This document shows positions 8,380 through 63,067 of a stretch of DNA of 64,000 nt, piece by piece. Source of the DNA: Mytilus trossulus (Eukaryota); assembly GCF_036588685.1 (NCBI RefSeq), contig NC_086381.1, forward strand, positions 24,614,001 to 24,678,000, in the 5' to 3' direction. The translations under genes were made by a program, and so were the position numbers. Every line of letters begins with the position of its first letter. Within the stretch, counting starts at the first letter, position 1. The notes beneath the pieces were generated by a model. That model was not told the origin of the DNA, ran no database searches, and saw only the letters and a list, made by a program, of their open reading frames with translations.

Positions 8380-9310
8380 TCTGTTACATGCCTGAAATCA
8401 ACATACACTAAAGGTCCGATCTGTTACACATATGAAGTCAACATACGCACCAAAAAAAAAAAGACCCAGGATGTTACACAAATGAAGTCAACATACTCCC
8501 CAAAAGGCCCGATCCCGATCTGTTACACGCCAGAAGTACATGCAAAAGGCCCGATATGTTAAACGCATGAAGTAAACATACGCCCAAGATTCCTGATCTG
8601 TTATACACCTGCAGTAAACATACGCCAAAGAGGCCCGATCTGTTACACACATGATGTCACATTATGCCGAAAAGGCCCGATCTGTTTCACAACTGATGTT
8701 AGCATAAGCCCAACATACCCAATACCCTACACACATAAAGTCAACATACACCCCAACATTTCCAATCTGTTACACACATGAAGTAAAAATACTCCCAAAA
8801 GACCCTATCTGGTTCACACCAGTGTCAACATACACACAAAAAGCCCAATATCTTACACACCTGAAGTCAGAATTCTCGCAAAAGGTCCGATCTGTTTCAC
8901 ACCAGTGTCAACACACGCAAAAGGCCCAATCTCTTACACACCTGAAGTCAAAATACGCCCAAAGGCCCGATCTGTTTCACACCTTAGGTCAATATACATC
9001 AACATGTCCAATCTCTTACACACATAAAGTCAACATACACCAATATGTCCAATCTTTTACACACCTGAAGTCGACATACACACCAAATGTCCAATCTTTT
9101 ACTCACCTGAAGTCGACATACACACAAATTGACCAATCTTTTACATACACGAAGTCGACATACACACAAAATGTCCAATCTCTTACACACCTGAAATCAA
9201 CATACTCTCAAAAGGTCAGCTATGTATCATACCTGAAATCAACGTATACTCAAACGTCACGATCTGTTTCACACTGAAGTTAACGTACATCAAAATGTCA
9301 GATGTGTTAC
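8380..9310. repeat. ~39-40-bp minisatellite, ~23 diverged copies
   Basis: Consensus-like ttacacacctgaagtcaacatacacacaaaatgtccaatct; ends ~200 bp upstream of the ABCC start codon. Confidence 0.9.
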
Positions 9311-9506: not shown

Positions 9507-45532
<36,026 letters not shown>

Positions 45533-52151: not shown

Positions 52152-53759
52152 ATATACATTATTTTCTAATACATTTTCAATGATCATAAGGGTAATAATA
52201 TTTTATTAATCAGATTAAAATTGAAATTATATCTCTTTAGCATTAACATATTAATACGACTGAATAATCAATAGGATCCGGAAACAAGATATAAACTTAC
52301 ATTTATTTTTCCTAATAAAAAAAGAACAATTTTTATATGAAATATACTCGAGGGAAGTGCTCTGTAAGGTAAATAATAATAACTGATTCTTATAGAACAC
52401 ATTCAATACAACAAATCTTTTAAACTGTTGAGTTTAAATGACATTTGAGAACGCATGGAAAACATAAAAAATCATAGCTCTTTCTATTTACTTACTCTTT
52501 TTTAACATTCATGAATTCTTTATTGCACTCTTTGCTGTTTTAAAAAAATACTTAAGTTAACTTATTTGTTGCAATTTTACACGTGCTCTGTGTTACTGTA
52601 CTTGTATTTTTTGTTGCGAATTGTGTATTTCAAACAAGTTCGCGAGTATTTATTTTCGCGATTATTTCCCGAAAATAAAATTAAAAAACAAATAGCGTGC
52701 AATCAGCAATCACTGAATGAAATGAAATTTGTCGATAATACGTTATAGATTCATAATATATATATAATGTCTGCAACAATCAACATGCAATCTATGCAGG
52801 CGTGGATCAGTTTGTGGAAATAAACTAATACATTTACTGAATGCAAAAATTATATAAATGTCTACGAATATAACTTTAACACGCTAACTAAGACAAATAA
52901 ACTATATTTCGCTAGACAAACTAGCTTCATTAGGCGTGTGCAACTCTCAAGATGAAATCGGATGAATGACTAGTAATACTTTTGTAGCTCAAACTACACA
53001 AAGTTGGAGTAAAAGTTTAACATATTTATAGATTGTCTATATTAAAGGAAAAATAAATACTTTTTCAGCTTAAACTTTGCAAAGTTCGTGTTTCAGCTAT
53101 ATTCTTAGATAGTTATATGAATGTAAATACAAGAGTAAGTTTAGTTTATACGCATATATTGCTCAATAACTTCGAAAATATTGAAATTTCAAGAAACGCG
53201 TACAAAACGTCTTTGAATACCAACATTTCAATCATATATACGGGTGTCATTCGGTATATATGTAATGATTTTATAGGAATAGTGTATGCAATATATTACC
53301 TATAATATCACAATCCTATGCTTGAGTCATAAGTCGTCTATTAGGCCGCTCGTCAATCTGGGGACGTCCGCTCTGGATAACAACTTGGGTAATGACTGCC
53401 TAATAATCCATGGGAAATCCCGGAATTCCTTGGTATGACGTAGTAGTGTAAATGTATAAGGATAAAGGCCAAGAATATTTAGTTCCGAATAAACTGTTGA
53501 TATAATACCATATTCTTAACATTCCTCCCTCTTTCGTAGAAATGAACCCGTTCTGTAGAATAAATTTATAGGTATTCCTTTTACTTAACACTTTGAAGTT
53601 CGATGTAGGGAAATAAATCCTTAATTTGGAATGCAGTTGTCCGTAAATTGAGGTAGATACATGTGGCCATAACGTTGTAATGTCACAAAATGATCACAAT
53701 AAACTATGTACAATAACTATGTACAAAAAATGTACTATATACACAATATCCGCCATGAT

Positions 53760-54911
53760 TTAAATGATGCTGTAGACGTCTGTGGCATTCTTGGTCGTAA
53801 TATTGGCAATTTCTTCTACGCTACACAAGAAAATGTTTGCCAATTTTTCACAGATATCCTTTATCATCAACGGTGAACCAAAATCTTCAAACTCAGGATG
53901 TAGATACGGGGCATCTGTCTCCAATACAATGTCTTTTAATTTCATGTTACAAACTAGAGACCTATATTTTTGATATTTTTTGTCATTTAGGATGAAAGGT
54001 GAAATGCCAAATTTGCAGTTTGGAAATGACGTTTTCCATTTCCGATACATCACTTCATCTCCATTAAAACAGTGCCTGTGTAATTTTAAACTTTTCGGCA
54101 GCAACCGAACAAGTGTATTCAAACATATCTCATCCGTACGCCCATCTCCTCTGCAATGAATAACCAGCGGTAAATCTCTTTTAACTGCAATTGCTATTTG
54201 TTTTTCAAAAAACTTGATCTGTTTTTCTAAATCACATTTCCTCCCACTATTATCTAAACCACACTCACTGACAGCAACCACTCTATTCGCTTTCAACAGC
54301 CATTCCAAATCCGAAATCCATCCATTTAATTTTGATGTATTTTCCATCTCCACAATTCTTGGGTGAATGCCGAAAGTAAGTTTAATCCTGTTATCCTGCC
54401 TAATTTTAGATCTTAAATCACTAGATGGCCAGTTTCTTGGATAACAGTAATTGCTAATAAGATATGAAATTTTATAATCCTTATTGTTCCATGTCCAAAA
54501 AGATTGAGGTAATGAAATATGGCCTATTTTTTTCGATAGCATATCCAAATGAAAATGAGAGTCCGTAAGGTGTAGTGTCTCTTTTACCTCCAAAACGGGT
54601 CTTAAAGATATAATTTTCTCAACGGAAATAAAGTTCTCGCCCATTTCTGTTTGTTGGATCAATGAAGCTAATATTCGCCAATGTAACAATAACGGTATAC
54701 TGTATGGAGGTTGAACTATAATATTTTTACTTCCAAATTCAAATACACATTCATTCGTGGCATTAAATATGAATACCATTTTTAAATCTTTTCCCTGAAA
54801 AATGGGCTCTGAATGCTTAGGATAAACACAGATTTTGTCAGCTAAATTACAAAGATCTTGTAGCGTATCACATTCGAGTTCTTTAGAAACAACCTCCGAT
54901 AAACCATTCAT
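53760..54911 (-). CDS. tatD: TatD-family nuclease ORF; the frame stays open up to ~55040 and includes a C2H2 zinc finger
   Basis: Motifs TDSHFHL, GIHP, SECGLD, VIHCR, HCF and ETDAPY (metal ligands retained). The in-frame upstream sequence reads CQCKIQFAQNSVLDAHIAEWH. Confidence 0.9.
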   Translation of the reverse strand: MNGLSEVVSKELECDTLQDLCNLADKICVYPKHSEPIFQGKDLKMVFIFNATNECVFEFGSKNIIVQPPYSIPLLLHWRILASLIQQTEMGENFISVEKIISLRPVLEVKETLHLTDSHFHLDMLSKKIGHISLPQSFWTWNNKDYKISYLISNYCYPRNWPSSDLRSKIRQDNRIKLTFGIHPRIVEMENTSKLNGWISDLEWLLKANRVVAVSECGLDNSGRKCDLEKQIKFFEKQIAIAVKRDLPLVIHCRGDGRTDEICLNTLVRLLPKSLKLHRHCFNGDEVMYRKWKTSFPNCKFGISPFILNDKKYQKYRSLVCNMKLKDIVLETDAPYLHPEFEDFGSPLMIKDICEKLANIFLCSVEEIANITTKNATDVYSII

Positions 54912-55000
54912 TAGGTTAACCCAGCGTTCATATTTGTCTTCCGAGAATTTAATATTTGTATTCTTAATGTCAGATTGATGCCACTCTGCAATATGAGCAT

Positions 55001-55183
55001 CTAAAACACTGTTCTGAGCAAATTGTATTTTGCACTGACATTAGTGAAAATTTCCGCACACGTCGGACACTTTCTTCCCTTTTTGTATCTCTTTGTACTC
55101 GCACGAAGATACATTGCATCATTTTTTGGTAGTTCATTCTCAAAAGGTCCATAGTCTGGCTCAAATTCATCATCCTCATGCAT
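55001..55183 (-). pseudogene. Frameshifted N-terminus of the ZnF-TatD ORF (acidic leader, basic patch, CxxC)
   Basis: MHEDDEFEPDY..KRYKKGRKCPTCAEIF. The ATG follows a splice acceptor (minus strand ttttacttattcctgcag|tATG). Confidence 0.65.
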
Positions 55184-55264
55184 ACTGCAGGAATAAGTAA
55201 AACAGTGAGATGAAACATATACGACAAATAAAGAAAAATATCAAAATATATTAAGTTTCTTGAA

Positions 55265-55362
55265 AAGCAAAAATTATAAGCAAAATTATATATATGCAAA
55301 AAATTACGAGCAAAAATTATATATGCAAAAATTACGAGCAAAAAAAATATATGCAAAAATTG
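55265..55362. repeat. Short gcaaaaatta tandem array between pol and the TatD ORF
   Basis: gcaaaaatta(ta/cga) repeated ~7 times. Confidence 0.75.
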
Positions 55363-55496
55363 CGCACACTCATACATTAGTAAAGCTTAAAAATATGTTA
55401 CACTTTGGCTAAAAATTTCTTTTCTCAGTACCAATAGTGGACAAAAAACTATATTACAATATTATACATAAATAATGATTATCTGTAACAAAATCA

Positions 55497-58400
55497 TTAA
55501 TCCTCGACATAGTCTGATAAGTAGGCAGGTTTTTTCCTTTGCCTCCTCCTACTTAACATATCGGATTCAACAGCAGATGCATCCATTTTATGAACATGAA
55601 GATCCGCATTAACATTCTTCTCGCCCACGTCGGTTTCAGCTTTCTTCTCTGAAGAAGTCGAATTACTGACTGTGTGAGACACCAGAGGATCTGGCGCACT
55701 CGCAATAGCAGCATCACCAATTAAATGAGACATCAGAGGATCTGACGAACTCTTGACATTGGTGTTTTCTTTAAATATATCTGGCATTCCAATTGGACAT
55801 TCGTCAATCTCATTGGTTTCTTCATCCATCGTTTGATCCACTTCTTGATTCCTCATCCTTTTAATCCAGATTGGAAGTTCCAAAGTTTAATTCTGTCATG
55901 ATGAATCCAAGATTCTGTTTTCCTATCCTTAATCTTGTATAATACAAGTGAACGCTGTTATCAAATATGGTCCTTTCCACGGAGATTTCAATTTCGCAGA
56001 CTGTCCCACCTTTGTAGCTTGATTGAGTTTATGAACGACATCTCCAACATTATACTTATTCTGGTTATATTTCAAATCATATATGCCTTTTTGTCGTTCC
56101 TGTGAAGCCTTCAAATTATCTCTGGCGATGTCATGCACCCTGTTTAAATTCTCCACGAAATCCTTAATATATTGTGGAACTTCTTTTCTGTCAGCATTCC
56201 AGTTTGAAGTGCCTAAAATTACATCAATTGGTTGAAAAACTTCTCTTCCCAGCATCATCATGTTAGCAGAGAATCCTGTTTGCGAGTTGCGTGTTGCTCG
56301 GACAGCTCCAACTAGTTGTTGAAAAAATAAATCCCAGTTGTGTTGTTTACTTTTGATGAAACATCTTATTGTCTGTAGTATTGTTTTGTTATACCGTTCC
56401 ACTTGTCCATTAGACGACGGATGATATGGTGTGGTTCTAGTCTTGGCTATTTGTAGTAGTTCACAGAGTTGCCTTACTAAGTTTCCATCCATGTTTATTC
56501 CTTGGTCTGTGTGGAGTTCAATTGGACAGCCAAATCTAAGAAAAAAAATGATCCACCAGGGTTCTTGCCACAGCTTCAGCTGTCTGTGTTGCAATTGGGA
56601 AGCATTCTAACCACTTTGTATACTGATCAATTACCATAAGCAAATATTTACTTTCCATTTTTGTAACAGGAAGAGGCCCTAAGATGTCCATGTGTACTCG
56701 TTCCATTGGGAAACCAGCATGGTATTGTCCTAACTTCGATCTGGCAGTTCGTGTTGTTTTGTTGTTAAGATTACATGTAGTGCATGATTTCACATACAGT
56801 TTGCAGGATTGCGTCATATTTAACCAAACAGCTATTTGTTTCAGTTTCTCTAATGTTTTATACTGTCCCATGTGACCAGACGAGACTACATCATGTCAAT
56901 CATGTAGAAGTTCCCTTTGCATCTGTTTTGGTGTCATGAAAAGGAGTCTTGGCAAAATAGGATATTCCCATTTGTAAAGTAAAATATTGTCTTTTATCTG
57001 TATTTGCTGTCGTAATGACCAAAAATGTCGGACTACTTCACTACACTGTTTTAGTTCTGCTTTAGTTGGCTCATATTTATCCTCGATCCATCTCTTTAAA
57101 GTTTTTAAATCAGAATCTCTCATTTGTTCTTCATGCAGTTCTACTGGAGAGTATGAAGGAGTCCAATTTGTTTTATATGAACCTTCGTCAACAAGTCTCC
57201 TTATGGTTAAGGGGACAACAAAATCCACTTCTTCCTCAAATGTTTGCTACTGTTGCCGTTCCCTTGTGCAAAACTTGCAACCCCCACAAGGTAACTCTTC
57301 TAAATTGAAATCTGGTCTGTAATTACGGCATGCATCAATGTCATCAGGTATTCTTGACAATCCATCTGCGTTAATGTGTTTCTTTCCAGCTCTGTGTTGT
57401 ATAATCATGTTATACTGAGACAGTTCTTCTATCCATCTTGCCAGTTGTCCTTTGATATTTTCAAAGTTTAGTAACCAGGTTAAACTGTTGTGGTCCGTTC
57501 TTATCACAAAAGTACGATCTAATAGATAGTGACGACATTGTCTAGTAAAACATATTATAGCCAATAATTCCTTTCTTGTTGTACAATAATTCCGCTGAGC
57601 AGGTGTCAAGACTTTACTTGCGAAGCTTACTGTTCTTTCCACTCCATCTTGTATCTGACTTAATTCTGCCCCGATAGATTTTTTGTGAAGCATCTGTATC
57701 TAGAATAAATAAGTCATCAGGTGTTGGATAACTTAAGATCACTGAATATATCAAAGCTTCATTAAGATTTTGAAAAGACTGTGTTTGTTCTTCATCCCAT
57801 GCAAATTCTGCCTTTGGACCAGTAAGTCGATGTAAAGGTTCCGCAATTTGGGCAAATTGTTCTATGTGATCACGATGATAGTTAACAAACCCTATAAAGG
57901 ATTCTACTTCTTTTCTGTTCCTTGGTGTTGGCCATTTCTTTACAGATCCTATACTGTCAGGATTCACTGCAACTCCATCGGCGCTGACTATTTTCCCCCA
58001 AAACTTCACTTGTGTTTGCAGCAGCTGACATTTGCTCGGTTTTAACTTTAGGTTATACTTCTGGAACCTCGAAAAAACTTCACTTAAACTACAGATGTGG
58101 TCATCAAAATCTTTGACTAAAACAATTACATCGTCAAGATATGCTAGACATTCTTTCCAGGAAAGGCCTTGCAGAACAAGCTGAATTACCCTGCTGAATG
58201 TTGCAGGACTATTACATAGACCAAATGGAAGTTTTGTATACTGAAATAGACCGTATTTAGTAACACACGCTGTCTTGTGTCTGTCGTTTTCGTCTAAGTT
58301 TACCTGATAATATCCTGAGGCCATATCCAGCGTTGACATGTGTCTATGTTCGAAATCTGGAACGCGTCTTTTATAGTACCGTCATTAAACTTCCGGAAGT

Positions 58401-59607
58401 CTATGCAGTATCTGAGCTTCCCGTCTTTCTTCCTTACTAATACTGGTGGCGATGCCCATTCCGAAGTAGACGGTTCAATAATTCCTTTATCTAACAGTTG
58501 CTGTAAATGTTCTTCTTCTTCTTTCTGAAATCCCAGGGGTGTTCTTCGCATTTTCTGTTTAATGGGATGGGAATTTCCAGTATCAATCTCATGTTGAATA
58601 TCTCCATTGAAAAGTCCAATATCCAGGTCATCCTTAGCGAAAATATCTTGGAACTTCAGTAATAATGTGGCTAGCTGTAATGACTGTTGGTTGTTTAAAT
58701 TTGCTAGTGATCTGTTGAATAGTTCTTTTAAATGTGTTGGTAGCTTCTCTCTTAGCTGGTTCAGGTCAAAGGACTGCTTTGGATCAATATCTATTTTATT
58801 CAACTTTAATCTATTTTCGTCTGTTTCCTCCATTACAGCATTAATCTCTAATCCTATACCCATCTGAAAATCCTTTTTCAGAGTTTTAAATTGTTCTGTT
58901 GGATTTCGTAGCATTACAGGAACTTGTTTTTTACCCATACAGAGCATATTTGGAACCAACAGGCCCTTCATGAAATTGGTTGGTTGAATTACAATATCAT
59001 TCATCGGTTTCTCATCTAACTCAACAATGGCAACTTTACTAGAACCAGGTGGTATGACTGTTTTCTTTTTTATCTTTATTCTGTTTATTTTCATTTGTTG
59101 GTCCTGTCTGTTTGAAGTCATAAAAGATGGAACTTTTTCACCTTTAAGTTTGATGGAATAGTCTGTTAAGTCAATAATTGCTTTTTGGCTCTCAAGAAAA
59201 TCTATACCTAGAATGAGATTATCTGTTATTTCAGCTACAACCATATCCCATTTAACTGTGGAACTGCCTATGTACAAGTTTACATTTTCTGCTATTCCTG
59301 CATTCATTTCTGAACAAGCTCCAGCACCTTTAAGTACGATGTTATCTTTGATTTTTGGTTTATAAGTTAACTGGTCAAAGAATGTCTTACTTATAACCGA
59401 CACCTGTGCTGCTGTGTATATTACTCCGAAAGTTTTCTTACTGTTCACCACTACAGGAATATATAATGTTTTGGCGTCTGAGTCTGGGATATTTGACTAA
59501 TATAAATTGACTTCAGTTTGTTTTTCTAAAGATAGAGTTGGTGGCCTTCCAGTATCACCTGGATAGGCTGAAGATCGGCCTACTGCTTCAACCCGTTGGA
59601 GTTTAAA
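55497..59607 (-). pseudogene. pol: Gypsy pol (protease, RT, RNase H, integrase), multiply disrupted
   Basis: PR IYTAAQVS (catalytic D replaced by Y) and ILGIDFL. RT WASPPVLV..RYCIDFR, LPFGLCNSPATF, YLDD. RH LDTDAS, NYCTTRKELLA, TDHNSL, NADGLSR. IN H..GH..CTTC, MDILGP, TDQG, NGQVERYN, WKGPY. Confidence 0.95.
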
Positions 59608-61256
59608 GACTCCCTGTTAACATTTAGTGAGGGTGACCTTGACCTGTTTCTTTATCTTTGTGGCGATCTACTCTTTGGTTTTTCACATTGTGCAATAAAA
59701 TGCCCTTCTTCGCCACAGTTAAAGCATTTATTATCTCTTATAGGACTTCTTCCTGGACTTGATAATCTTTGTGATTGTCCAAATTTAATGGTTGAATTAC
59801 CTCTTTTCAAGATGTCCAGTATCTGTTTGATGCTTGTCTTTGTGTCCTGAACATCTTCTTCTGTCTTTTTAAGTCTCGACTCAAATCTGCTAATTACATC
59901 AGTATCACTTGCTCCTTTTCTGTACAAAGCTCTTACACTTGTTGTAGATTCCTGATCCCCGTGTGAGTCATACATGTCCGTTTCTGTTTCGTGGAATATC
60001 ACCCTTTTAACCTCAGGCTTTTTATTTCATAAAATAACTTTTTGATTGGTAACAGCACTCTTCACATATTTAAGGGCTTTGTCCAAACTATCAGGATCCT
60101 TATCCATTGCTGTTAAAGCTGCCTTTTTGTCCATGCATCCTTTCAGAAAAGCATTAGTGGCAACTATCTGAATAAAATCATCAGGTGTTCCTGGAAACCC
60201 ATCAGTTGCAAGATCCTGTGTTCTCTCTGCACACTCATCAAGAGGTTCCTCTGGCAATTGACGAAGGTCTTGTAGTTGTCTCCTTATAACATGAAGTAAG
60301 TCCTTTCTTCCAAATCTGTCCTCCATTTTTTTTACAAACAGCTTGGTATCCTTCCTAGACTGACTTTGGCATTGTGGTAAAAAACTTAAGTGCTCTGTCT
60401 CTCAAACATTCAATGAGCTTGTCCAGTCTGTCTTGATTCGTCCAGTTATATCTATTGGCAATATGATTGAATTGAACAAGGTACGGCCGCCAGTCACTTC
60501 TACCATCATAGGTGCTAATTTTAGGTGGCAACGGACCATCTTGTCGTTTACTGCCCTGTCCGGTGTGTGTTTTGGTTTTCCAACTAGGTTCATCTTTAGT
60601 TTCTGCTATTTGCATGCTGGGCTTCTCTTTTGATAATGACCATTTTTCAATCATCTCGTGTAACTTCGTTTTATTATCTGTCTCCGTTTTCATAGTCATC
60701 TGTATTTTTCTCATCTGTTCGTCTCGTTCTTCTATAGATTGATTTAATTTCAGCTCTCTTTCGCTAAATTTGTTAATCAATTCTTCCATTTCTTCCTTAT
60801 GTCTCTTGCCAAGGTTATCATACTGTTGTTCGTAATCATGTTCTCTGTTTTTCATCTTCACTGTGAAATCCTGGTTTACAGCTGCAATCCTGTTTTCCTA
60901 ATCTGCTTTCATTAGTGCTTTGTCTTTCTCTGCATTTGAAAAGTATGTTTTTAATTTTTCATTCATTGCTGCCATCTTCTTTATTTCTTTGGCATTTTTT
61001 TCTGCTTTCCCCGTAACATTTTTTGGATACCTTCTTGGATTTCTTCGGATGGTTCCAATATTATAACCCCAGTCTTCATCAGTGGATCCCACATGGTGTT
61101 AGGAATATCCGTCATAAGTTTAAGGTCTTCCAAAATAAGAGGGGAGCCTTTCTCTTCTCTTTTGTTAATAATCTTTTGTGCTCTTCTGTCACTTATTCCT
61201 GTTATCTGTTTAAGTTGTTCCAATGAAGCTGTGTTTATTTTGATAGGTTGTGACAT
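59580..61256 (-). pseudogene. gag: Gypsy gag with N-terminal helix-hairpin-helix domain, coiled coil, capsid-like region and CCHC knuckle; disrupted
   Basis: MSQPIKINTASLEQLKQITGISDRRAQKII (HhH); YDGRSDWRPYLVQF; AFLKG; CFNCGEEGHFIAQC; ends SLNSNGLKQ*. Confidence 0.9.
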
Positions 61257-61960
61257 GATTACCAAATTAAAGTTTAGTAATCAAAATCTAATAAACTTTT
61301 ATAAAAAAAAAAATAATCTATGTATATTACTACTTGTATAGGAATTGAATAATGTCAGGATGAATAACAAAAGTAATATGTACGCACAGGTTATTATAAT
61401 ACAGACACAAGCACTATCACAAAACAAAAAGCTTATTTGTATTTAATCACAAGCTTAAAAAACACTACACCATAAACAATATTTTTTTTTAAAAATCACA
61501 AACACTTTTACATACAATCACAACTATAGAAAATTTGGTATATTAATCTTATTCTGATTTGCCAATGAAAACACAAGTATAGAAAAAAACAAAACTCAAT
61601 CTGAAAACACCTATGACATCAGAGGATCTGACGCGCAAAGCTGTTTCAGAAATTAACTTATTTTAATAAACCTGTTTATATTTTCATCTAAGTTAAAGGA
61701 CATAAATATTTAAAACTTTATATGCATAAGTGTAAATAAATATATGAGTGACACAATCAAATATGTTTATATTTGTCTTTCTTTTTAATATCAAACATAC
61801 TTACAACTTCTTGTCCAATCAAATTGCTTGAATTTGCCTTCTAATTTTCATAGTAAATATTTTTCCCGTGTACTAAATACCTACGCATGAATGACCACAA
61901 GGATAAGATTTCATTGTATTGTAATCAAGATATTCGAACAAAAATTCCTACTGGCTATTA

Positions 61961-63067
61961 AAAAATGTGTGGCGTGACCTGCCAAACCAACCAAGATGGC
62001 CGCCATGGCTAAAAATAGAACATAGGGGTAAAATGCAGTTTTTGGCTTTTAACTCAAAAACCAAAGCATTAAGAGCAAATCTGACAAGGAGTTAAATTGT
62101 TTATCAGGTGAACATCTATCTGCCCTGAAATTTTCAGATGAATCAGACAACCCCTTGTTTGGTGGCTGCCCCTGAATTGGTAATTTTAGGGAAATTTTGC
62201 TGTTTTTTGTTATTATCTTGAATATTATTATAGATAGAGATAAACTAGAAACAGCAATAATGTTCAGCAAAGTAAGATTTACAAATAAGTCAACATGACC
62301 AAAATGGTCAGTTGACCCCTTTAGGAGTTATTGCCCTTTATAGTCAATTTTTACCATTTTTCGTAAATTTTATATATCTTTTACAAAAATCTTCTTCTCT
62401 GAAACTACTGGGCCAAATTAATCCAAACTTGGCTACAATCATCTTTCGGGTATCTAATTTAAAAAATGTGTGGCGTGACCCGCCAGAATAACCAAGATGG
62501 CCGCCATGGCTAAAAATAGAACATAGGGGTGAAATGCAGCTTTTGGCATATAACTCAAAAACCAAAGCATTTAGAGCACTTCTGACAAGCAGTTAAATTG
62601 TTTATCAGGTCAACTATCTCCCCTGAAATTTTCAGAGGAATCAGAGAACCTGTTGTTGGGTTGCTGTCCCTGAATTGGTAATTTTAAGGAAATTTTACTG
62701 TTTTTGGTTATTATCTTGAATATTATTATAGATAGAGATAAACTGTAAACAGCAATATTGATCAGCAAAGGAAGATTTACAAATAAGTCAACATGACCAA
62801 AATGGAGTTATTTCCCTTTATAGTCAATTTTAAACAATTTTCATAAAATTTGTTAATTTTTACTACGGGTAACATTTTCCACAGAAACTACTGGGCCAAG
62901 TTCATTATAGATAGTGATAATTGTAAGCAGCAAGAATGTTCAGTAAAGTAAGATGTACAAACATATCACCATCGACAAAACACAATTTTGTCATGATTCC
63001 ATCTGCTTCCTTTGTTTAATATTCACATAGACCAAGGTGAGCGACACAGGCTCTTTAGAGCCTCTAG
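61961..63067 (+). mobile_element. 5'-truncated Helentron-associated (HINE-type) element with ~501-bp tandem units
   Basis: Unit starts at 61961 and 62462 (aaaaatgtgtggcgtgacc..ccaagatggccgccatggc). The 3' end is aggtgagcg, then hairpin aggctc-ttta-gagcct, then ctag and a T run. Confidence 0.8.

Follow-up and report, generated by a model that had tools for sequence, protein, structure and literature searches.

A stretch of 64,000 nt of the Mytilus trossulus genome (assembly GCF_036588685.1, contig NC_086381.1, positions 24,614,001 to 24,678,000 of the forward strand; this whole stretch is referred to as the window) carries, on its minus strand, a Ty3/Gypsy long terminal repeat (LTR) retrotransposon with a TatD nuclease gene in the env position. 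The original prediction, made from the letters of the window, had described a Gag with a helix-hairpin-helix (HhH) domain, a pol of protease, reverse transcriptase (RT), RNase H (RH) and integrase, and a zinc finger-TatD region, all co-oriented on this strand, and every one of these parts is located where it had been predicted. The third open reading frame (ORF) had been put about 310 bp past the end of pol; pol stops at 55497-55499 and the ATG of the third ORF is at 55183, a distance that we measured as 314 bp. The parts of the window copy are as follows.

61257..61800, minus strand: remnant of the 5′ leader of the element; the blastn match to sister copies L031/L032 stops at 61800
60981..61256, minus strand: Gag N-terminus with HhH domain (HHH_3, Pfam E 8e-10)
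59652..60980, minus strand: remaining gag, with coiled coil, capsid-like region and CCHC zinc knuckle; frameshifts and stops
55497..59651, minus strand: pol, with protease, RT, RNase H, integrase and a C-terminal tail; frameshifts and stops
55184..55496, minus strand: AT-rich spacer, with a pyrimidine tract and AG (splice-acceptor-like) in the sequence just 5′ of the third-ORF ATG
54570..55183, minus strand: N-terminal part of the third ORF: an acidic leader followed by two C2H2-like zinc fingers and the helical "LHWR" module; broken near 55035-55040
53760..54569, minus strand: TatD domain of the third ORF, class II (Pfam E 3.8e-41)
53522..53534, minus strand: polypurine tract, read from the sequence; equivalent position in sister copies
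53261..53521, minus strand: 3′ LTR, TG...CA, about 260 bp; matches sister LTRs

Within the minus-strand frames, the Pfam matches covered HHH_3 (60981-61280, E 8e-10, with the ATG at 61256), zf-CCHC (59655-60026), aspartyl protease (58303-59496), RVT_1 (57617-58381, E 2e-26), RT_RNaseH (57250-57699), Integrase_H2C2 and rve (55932-56895) and TatD_DNase (53763-55040, E 3.8e-41). The TatD_DNase match was near full length (profile positions 1-252 of 253), and the TatD gene is intronless and lies inside the element. Both LTRs had been thought to be missing, which is correct for the 5′ LTR, lost together with the primer-binding site where the copy ends at 61800, and incorrect for the 3′ LTR, which is 95.4% identical to the 5′ LTR of L031 and 85.0% identical to that of L032. 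The 3′ LTR has no self-match within the window, and it was owing to this loss of the 5′ LTR that the polypurine tract and 3′ LTR had been missed. The gag, pol and third ORF are all broken, with frameshifts near 61019, 60326, 58335, 57680, 56539, 55955 and 55035-55040 in addition to in-frame stops, and the window copy is a dead, 5′-truncated Ty3/Gypsy element. Since the break near 55040 sits in the zinc-finger part, the 426-aa open frame represents the downstream part of the gene only.

Linkage of TatD to the retrotransposon across the genome

A search of the 1.30-Gb genome with the window TatD protein gave 100 matches (from 153 candidates, of which 98 were scored), as befits a multi-copy gene. 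A piece of pol lay ≤1.5 kb upstream of TatD in 27 of the 30 best loci, and co-oriented pol was present upstream in 18 of the 20 weaker matches that were fetched (24-29% identity). Comparison of the DNA 3′ of TatD with the DNA 5′ of gag revealed an LTR pair flanking TatD in 17/18 close copies and 9/9 distant copies (26/27 in total), which establishes the linkage that the window copy by itself had left unproven. The LTR pairs of these sister copies were 196-290 bp long and 93.7-100% identical, with no difference at all in 14 of the 26 pairs. Their ends read TG...CA, or TG...TA in one family, and a primer site starting with TGG follows the 5′ LTR while a purine tract precedes the 3′ LTR. Exact 4-bp target duplications, read by eye, bordered 25 of the 26 LTR-paired copies.

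We also approached the association from the integrase, scoring the best 150 of 1325 candidates against 114 TatD positions. A TatD match occurred ≤9 kb downstream of 60 of the 63 integrases ranked 1-63, of 6 of the 37 ranked 64-100, and of 0 of the 50 ranked 101-150. Of the three top-ranked integrases without TatD, one has an additional RT frame inserted behind pol, another shows no third ORF in the stretch that was fetched, and the last belongs to a TatD-less subfamily described below. A tree of RT-RNase H united all 14 TatD-bearing rows, together with five others, in one branch (100/100) set against nine other Gypsy elements. The pol order is protease, RT, RNase H, integrase, and Retrotrans_gag, PNMA and zf-CCHC were detected in sister gags; the element is a Ty3/Gypsy (Metaviridae) retrotransposon in the full sense. 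The predicted status of TatD as cargo that marks out a lineage of elements was thus borne out by LTR pairs, copy number, integrases and tree alike, and we regard it as practically certain. Neither of the two outcomes named beforehand as fatal to it, a single-copy, syntenic TatD without the element or a 3′ LTR between integrase and TatD, was found. The clade is old (deep) and is still transposing in the M. trossulus genome.

For 20 elements, the RT-RH and TatD trees were congruent (Mantel r 0.86, p 1e-4), with 11 of 17 splits in common and TatD evolving 2.9 times faster than RT-RH. Broken RTs entered this RT-RH tree and the one described above by their longest single aligned piece, which lengthens the L059 and L061 branches. 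In the window family, the ratio of nonsynonymous to synonymous substitution rates (dN/dS) of the TatD domain was 0.124 (L001/L003) and 0.116 (L002/L003), at dS 0.28-0.30 and with a Fisher p of about 1e-14, compared with 0.111 for RT-RH; for deep pairs, dS was saturated. The element TatD is under purifying selection.

A second TatD-bearing element, of the other sub-lineage, lies ~20 kb past the window end (L056, G000:C9:24696859-24706858). Parts of elements were also seen as head-to-head inverted pairs at L014/L015/L043 (G000:C11), L006 (G000:C3) and G000:C11:14404551-14411001. Elsewhere in the window, two ~500-bp tandem copies of an unrelated repeat stand just past the 5′ truncation (61958-62805), inverted arms of 461 nt, 99% complementary and spaced by 926 nt, are likely a recent non-autonomous DNA element (42976-44823), and tandem arrays of 42-bp and 28-bp units occupy 8409-9274 and 670-880, respectively. 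A tRNA search of the window found none.

The third ORF, its nuclease and companion domains

In the 10 families inspected, the third ORF starts directly after a pyrimidine tract and AG. No joint between leader and third ORF was present in the assembled contigs of four runs guessed to be RNA, an origin that is only presumed. None of 32 third-ORF frames contained a membrane segment, their top 19-residue hydropathy being 0.9-1.74 (1.06 in the window). The N-terminal module (N-module) was well predicted in the model of a sister protein; in Protein Atlas its best scores were 0.88-0.90, yielding C2H2-type leads only, and the whole-protein fold search hardly probed it. The named TATDN2 proteins of fish, reptile and marsupial origin with which it was compared do not have it, and neither does the large open frame that lies upstream in the host TATDN2 gene. 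A profile search, examined as its 150 top clusters at 50% identity, recovered the N-module in 126 of 130 new ones, with the caveat that the profile favours such matches.

The TatD-less subfamily is nested within the clade (L187, L188, L190). Its third ORFs (L187:2398-3741, L188:2930-4318, L190:5226-6191) keep the N-module (E 2e-14 to 1e-5) and, where the end is seen, bear a ubiquitin-like domain at the C-terminus (TM 0.67-0.76 between predicted models). Its gag and pol form one long frame. LTR pairs of this subfamily are 99.4% and 98.6% identical, and the existence of a young subfamily that has no TatD indicates that TatD is accessory and not essential. On this evidence, ORF3 is a scaffold of zinc fingers whose payload can be exchanged. 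Outside the clade, Gypsy elements (L189-L195, L197, L198) likewise had non-env third ORFs, of 242-566 aa, which start with weak C2H2-like fingers.

The nuclease payload has metal ligands H162, H164, E259, H295, H323 and D376 (426-aa frame numbering), invariant in 14 aligned sequences, and HxH, Glu, His, His, Asp is the ligand set described for class II TatDs (PMC10085689). All five strict motifs were fitted by 92 of the 130 new database relatives; an earlier count of 32 of 32 motifs was partly circular, the frames having been picked by three of the motifs, and was not used. The sister third-ORF protein model (pLDDT 88.6) had TatD structures as its best Foldseek matches (E 7e-16) and aligned to 6l25 with Z 32.5 and an rmsd of 2.1 over 251 residues, class II structures as a whole giving Z 29.9-32.5. 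By its ligands and its predicted TIM-barrel fold, the third-ORF TatD is a class II TatD, and the protein is very probably an active two-metal, metal-dependent nuclease. As an adjustment to the original prediction, the TatD is of the TATDN2 type (class II, HxH), whose human member acts on R-loop RNA, not on DNA (PMC10711561), which leaves the predicted processing of cDNA ends or gaps as just one among several readings.

M. trossulus also has a separate, intron-containing host TATDN2 gene (L071, G000:C1), with five TatD exons and 42-55% identity to a fish TATDN2, and a host TATDN3-like frame (L073, E 1e-85 to 2y1h). In our TatD trees, which had no TATDN1 row, the element TatDs and host TATDN2 formed one branch apart from TATDN3 and bacterial TatD (98; 99/99 in the second tree); 6 rows with a short or unfound domain were dropped from the first of these trees. 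In the comparison with host genes that had been proposed, the element TatDs are distinct from the intron-containing host TATDN2 and from TATDN3. We rejected the window gene as the host TATDN2 orthologue, given that it is intronless and element-borne and that the host gene lies elsewhere; it groups with TATDN2 all the same. Host TATDN2 adjoins one element sub-lineage at 88/94 (not starred), and monophyly of the element TatDs was not rejected (approximately unbiased test, p 0.324). TATDN2 is reported from most eukaryotes (PMC10085689), so capture from the host is the simpler reading; a bolder one, compatible with these trees though very improbable, would derive host TATDN2 from among the TatDs of the elements.

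The closest named relatives of the window third-ORF protein are Mytilus proteins, and Mytilus, scallop and oyster proteins annotated "tatD" or "putative deoxyribonuclease TATDN2" group among the element proteins. A metagenome scan, of which 80 of 564 confirmed loci were kept, gave TatD domains only (24-36%), with a pol match in 0 of the 80; these served as outgroups only. Two intronless TatD frames without Gypsy pol stood nearer to host TATDN2 (L070:6559-8500, G000:C14; L072:6888-7847, G000:C22), the former coming after an OTU-protease frame beside ~225-bp tandem repeats, and these are possibly retrocopies or another mobile element. In the giant squid Hox cluster, a "TATDN2" is annotated among transposon-related genes (PMC6962438); as speculation, this gene may be element-borne as well.

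Several further domains accompany the clade. HhH occurs on Gag in both sub-lineages, and HhH, Retrotrans_gag and zf-CCHC share one open frame in sister copies; TatD lay downstream of 29 of 39 HhH matches, and modelling of the HhH domain from a single sequence gave a poor result (pLDDT 64.6). At G000:C4:35414768-35415919 and G000:C12:11260362-11261108, HhH appears to be joined with the C-terminal part of TatD in one open frame (416 and 258 aa), probably by internal deletion. A Tpt1/KptA RNA 2′-phosphotransferase (PF01885, E 1e-35) lies inside pol, ahead of the protease, in part of one TatD-bearing sub-lineage, in 8 fetched loci (L054:400-5856 in G000:C10, L055, L057, L058, L059, L172, L176 and L184); no literature on Tpt1/KptA inside retrotransposons was evident from titles. 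The integrase C-terminus of this sub-lineage carries a PHD finger (L054-L062, L064-L067, L177, L179, L182, L185-L188, L190). Among 40 longer database relatives scanned, 5 had NADAR fused to an element-type TatD (4 over the Pfam cut-off), to which P0137 is added; these fusions (P0137, P0264, P0281, P0293, P0311 and P0322), five N-terminal and one C-terminal, are known from protein records alone. In the M. trossulus genome, 0 of 31 NADAR matches fell at listed TatD positions (compared by eye).

What the nuclease may do for the element

The strand that human TATDN2 removes from R-loops is the RNA; the enzyme barely acts on DNA and needs its N-terminus for binding (PMC10711561). Because this nearest characterised enzyme acts on R-loop RNA, we favour, with a probability of roughly 0.4, the reading that the third-ORF protein is a zinc-finger-targeted, TATDN2-like RNase working on R-loop-type intermediates of the element. 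A spliced subgenomic RNA would give rise to the ORF3 product, an accessory protein that would be separate and soluble, with the zinc-finger module of the element taking the place of the host enzyme's disordered N-terminus as the targeting part. The nuclease would then trim, as TATDN2 does, the RNA strand from the element's own three-stranded RNA:DNA structures. R-loops at transcribed copies and RNA flaps from strand transfer and strand-displacement synthesis are candidate substrates, and the outcome may be greater element output or lower visibility to host silencing, either of which would be helpful and not essential.

A number of points weigh against this targeted-RNase reading. The element has an RNase H of its own and thus no obvious need of a further enzyme that removes RNA; human TATDN2 acts only weakly on plain RNA:DNA duplexes (PMC10711561), and other class II TatDs are described as DNA 3′ exonucleases and apurinic/apyrimidinic (AP) endonucleases (PMC10085689; PMC13434339). 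Over the domain, the element TatDs share only ~25-34% identity with a fish TATDN2, and substrate choice need therefore not be conserved. One subfamily, as described above, keeps the N-module and has no TatD. The RT-RH and TatD trees differ in 6 of 17 splits, the differing deep splits having bootstraps of 42-85 in either tree, and for L051/L053 dS is saturated in TatD as against 0.26 in RT-RH, a mismatch that suggests exchange of the 3′ module. Lastly, dN/dS of near-identical pairs is 0.17-0.80 on few changes, which is expected from decaying dead copies and is not evidence of constraint.

The nuclease might instead belong to a repair kit, in which TatD would serve as AP endonuclease or 3′ clean-up exonuclease, RT as polymerase and HhH as DNA binder, together mending the damage that base-modifying defences of the host inflict on cDNA (abasic sites after deamination, or ADP-ribosylation). 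Class II TatDs with AP endonuclease and 3′ exonuclease activity are known (PMC10085689; QatD, PMC13434339), and the companions fit (HhH on Gag, Tpt1/KptA in pol, the NADAR fusions), KptA and NADAR having been reported from viral conflict and RNA-repair settings (PMC9503650). On the other hand, TATDN2, the nearest characterised relative, is described as having only very weak AP activity (PMC10711561), the NADAR fusions come from records without genomic context and found no counterpart at the genomic TatD positions, and a separate third ORF has no demonstrated route into the particle; we hold this alternative, the main rival of the targeted-RNase reading, to be tentative and somewhat unlikely. 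Slightly more doubtful is a broader reading, by which the clade would carry a modular repair and counter-defence kit (mostly TatD and HhH, in some members Tpt1/KptA or NADAR) against an undescribed invertebrate base- or end-modification defence, for example through ADP-ribosylation or abasic sites, that damages retroelement RNA or cDNA. If this were true, the cargo would point to an undescribed host pathway.

Genes that evolve fast and are swappable and dispensable have the usual traits of accessory conflict genes, and the TatD payload, with its 2.9-fold faster evolution, shares all three. It could accordingly be thought to evade immunity or harm competitors, by destroying surplus cDNA or hybrids seen by host sensors, host small-RNA guides, or the intermediates of competitors, much as TatDs have been co-opted in conflict elsewhere (QatD, PMC13434339; parasite TatD, PMC10085689); however, no target was identified and dN/dS, calculated pairwise only, gave no sign of positive selection, and we consider this explanation unlikely. 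An env-like role in the exit from or entry into cells, or alternatively a scaffold without catalytic activity whose zinc-finger module is the working part and whose TatD barrel does no more than bind nucleic acid, appears less probable again: the env position, the acceptor-like signal, the persistence of the N-module after TatD loss and the C2H2-like fingers at the start of outgroup third ORFs speak for it, whereas the absence of a membrane segment and the conservation of all six metal ligands speak against it. That TatD is a mere passenger, either a retrocopy taken from the host that does nothing for the element or a neighbour by chance, might be suspected from the subfamily that transposes without it and from rotifer ORF3s, which show no departure from neutrality within a genome (PMC5408684). 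This idea is largely refuted by ligands that stay intact down to ~25% identity, a dN/dS of about 0.12 and co-divergence with RT, and we give it hardly any weight.

Relation to known systems and significance

The nearest precedents are Juno and Vesta of bdelloid rotifers (PMC5408684), Gypsy-like elements that also carry a catalytically intact nuclease as a third ORF in the env position. Theirs has a DEDDy (RNase D) 3′-5′ exonuclease fold, in contrast to the TatD TIM barrel of the mussel clade, in whose ORF3 Pfam gives TatD_DNase only and no DEDDy/RNase D. The Juno and Vesta ORF3s are further reported to be of recent origin, specific to their families and neutrally evolving within the genome, while the mussel TatD dates back to the ancestor of a deep clade, has diverged along with RT, is under purifying selection and is fused to a zinc-finger module. 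Human TATDN2 (PMC10711561) and TATDN3, YcfH and YjjV (PMC10085689) share the HxH motif, the six ligands and the TatD fold, and TATDN2 also the tree branch; the element TatD differs from TATDN2 in being intronless, within LTRs and present in many copies, and in its predicted folded double zinc-finger/helical N-terminus. QatD of the QatABCD anti-phage system (PMC13434339) is likewise a class II TatD co-opted for conflict, but in bacterial host defence and not as animal retroelement cargo. Env-bearing Metaviridae (errantiviruses) and the rotifer TelKA (PMC5408684) have the gag-pol-ORF3 layout and the acceptor-like signal in common with the mussel elements, whose ORF3 encodes a predicted soluble nuclease without a membrane segment.

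Named mollusc Gypsy clades comprise A/B/C and MolGy (PMC6238403); the main text of that survey has no mention of ORF, DNase, nuclease or envelope, and its supplements, like the transposable element libraries of PMC10294476, may hold such families. Our literature search, which lay outside most subscription papers, Repbase, Dfam, GyDB and the supplements of mollusc transposable element surveys, found no description of TatD-bearing retrotransposons, and elements with TatD in the env position are apparently undescribed. A nuclease in this position is already known from rotifers; the mussel clade has one of another fold and stands out by its depth, constraint and recent mobility.

Because element genes are annotated as "tatD" or TATDN2 in bivalves, apparent bivalve TATDN2 expansions may be transposon cargo; in public annotations, the TatD genes of elements pass for normal genes of the host. 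Solubility prevented the assay of human TATDN2 in one study (PMC10085689), and the element protein may provide a natural enzyme of TATDN2-like type that is soluble and has its targeting module folded.

LTR retrotransposons are held to need gag, pol and sometimes env only. That a deep, mobile clade keeps a nuclease of a DNA/RNA-repair family under strong constraint implies an unrecognised step in the LTR life cycle, or a host barrier to it, and the element enzyme provides a handle for finding such a step or barrier.

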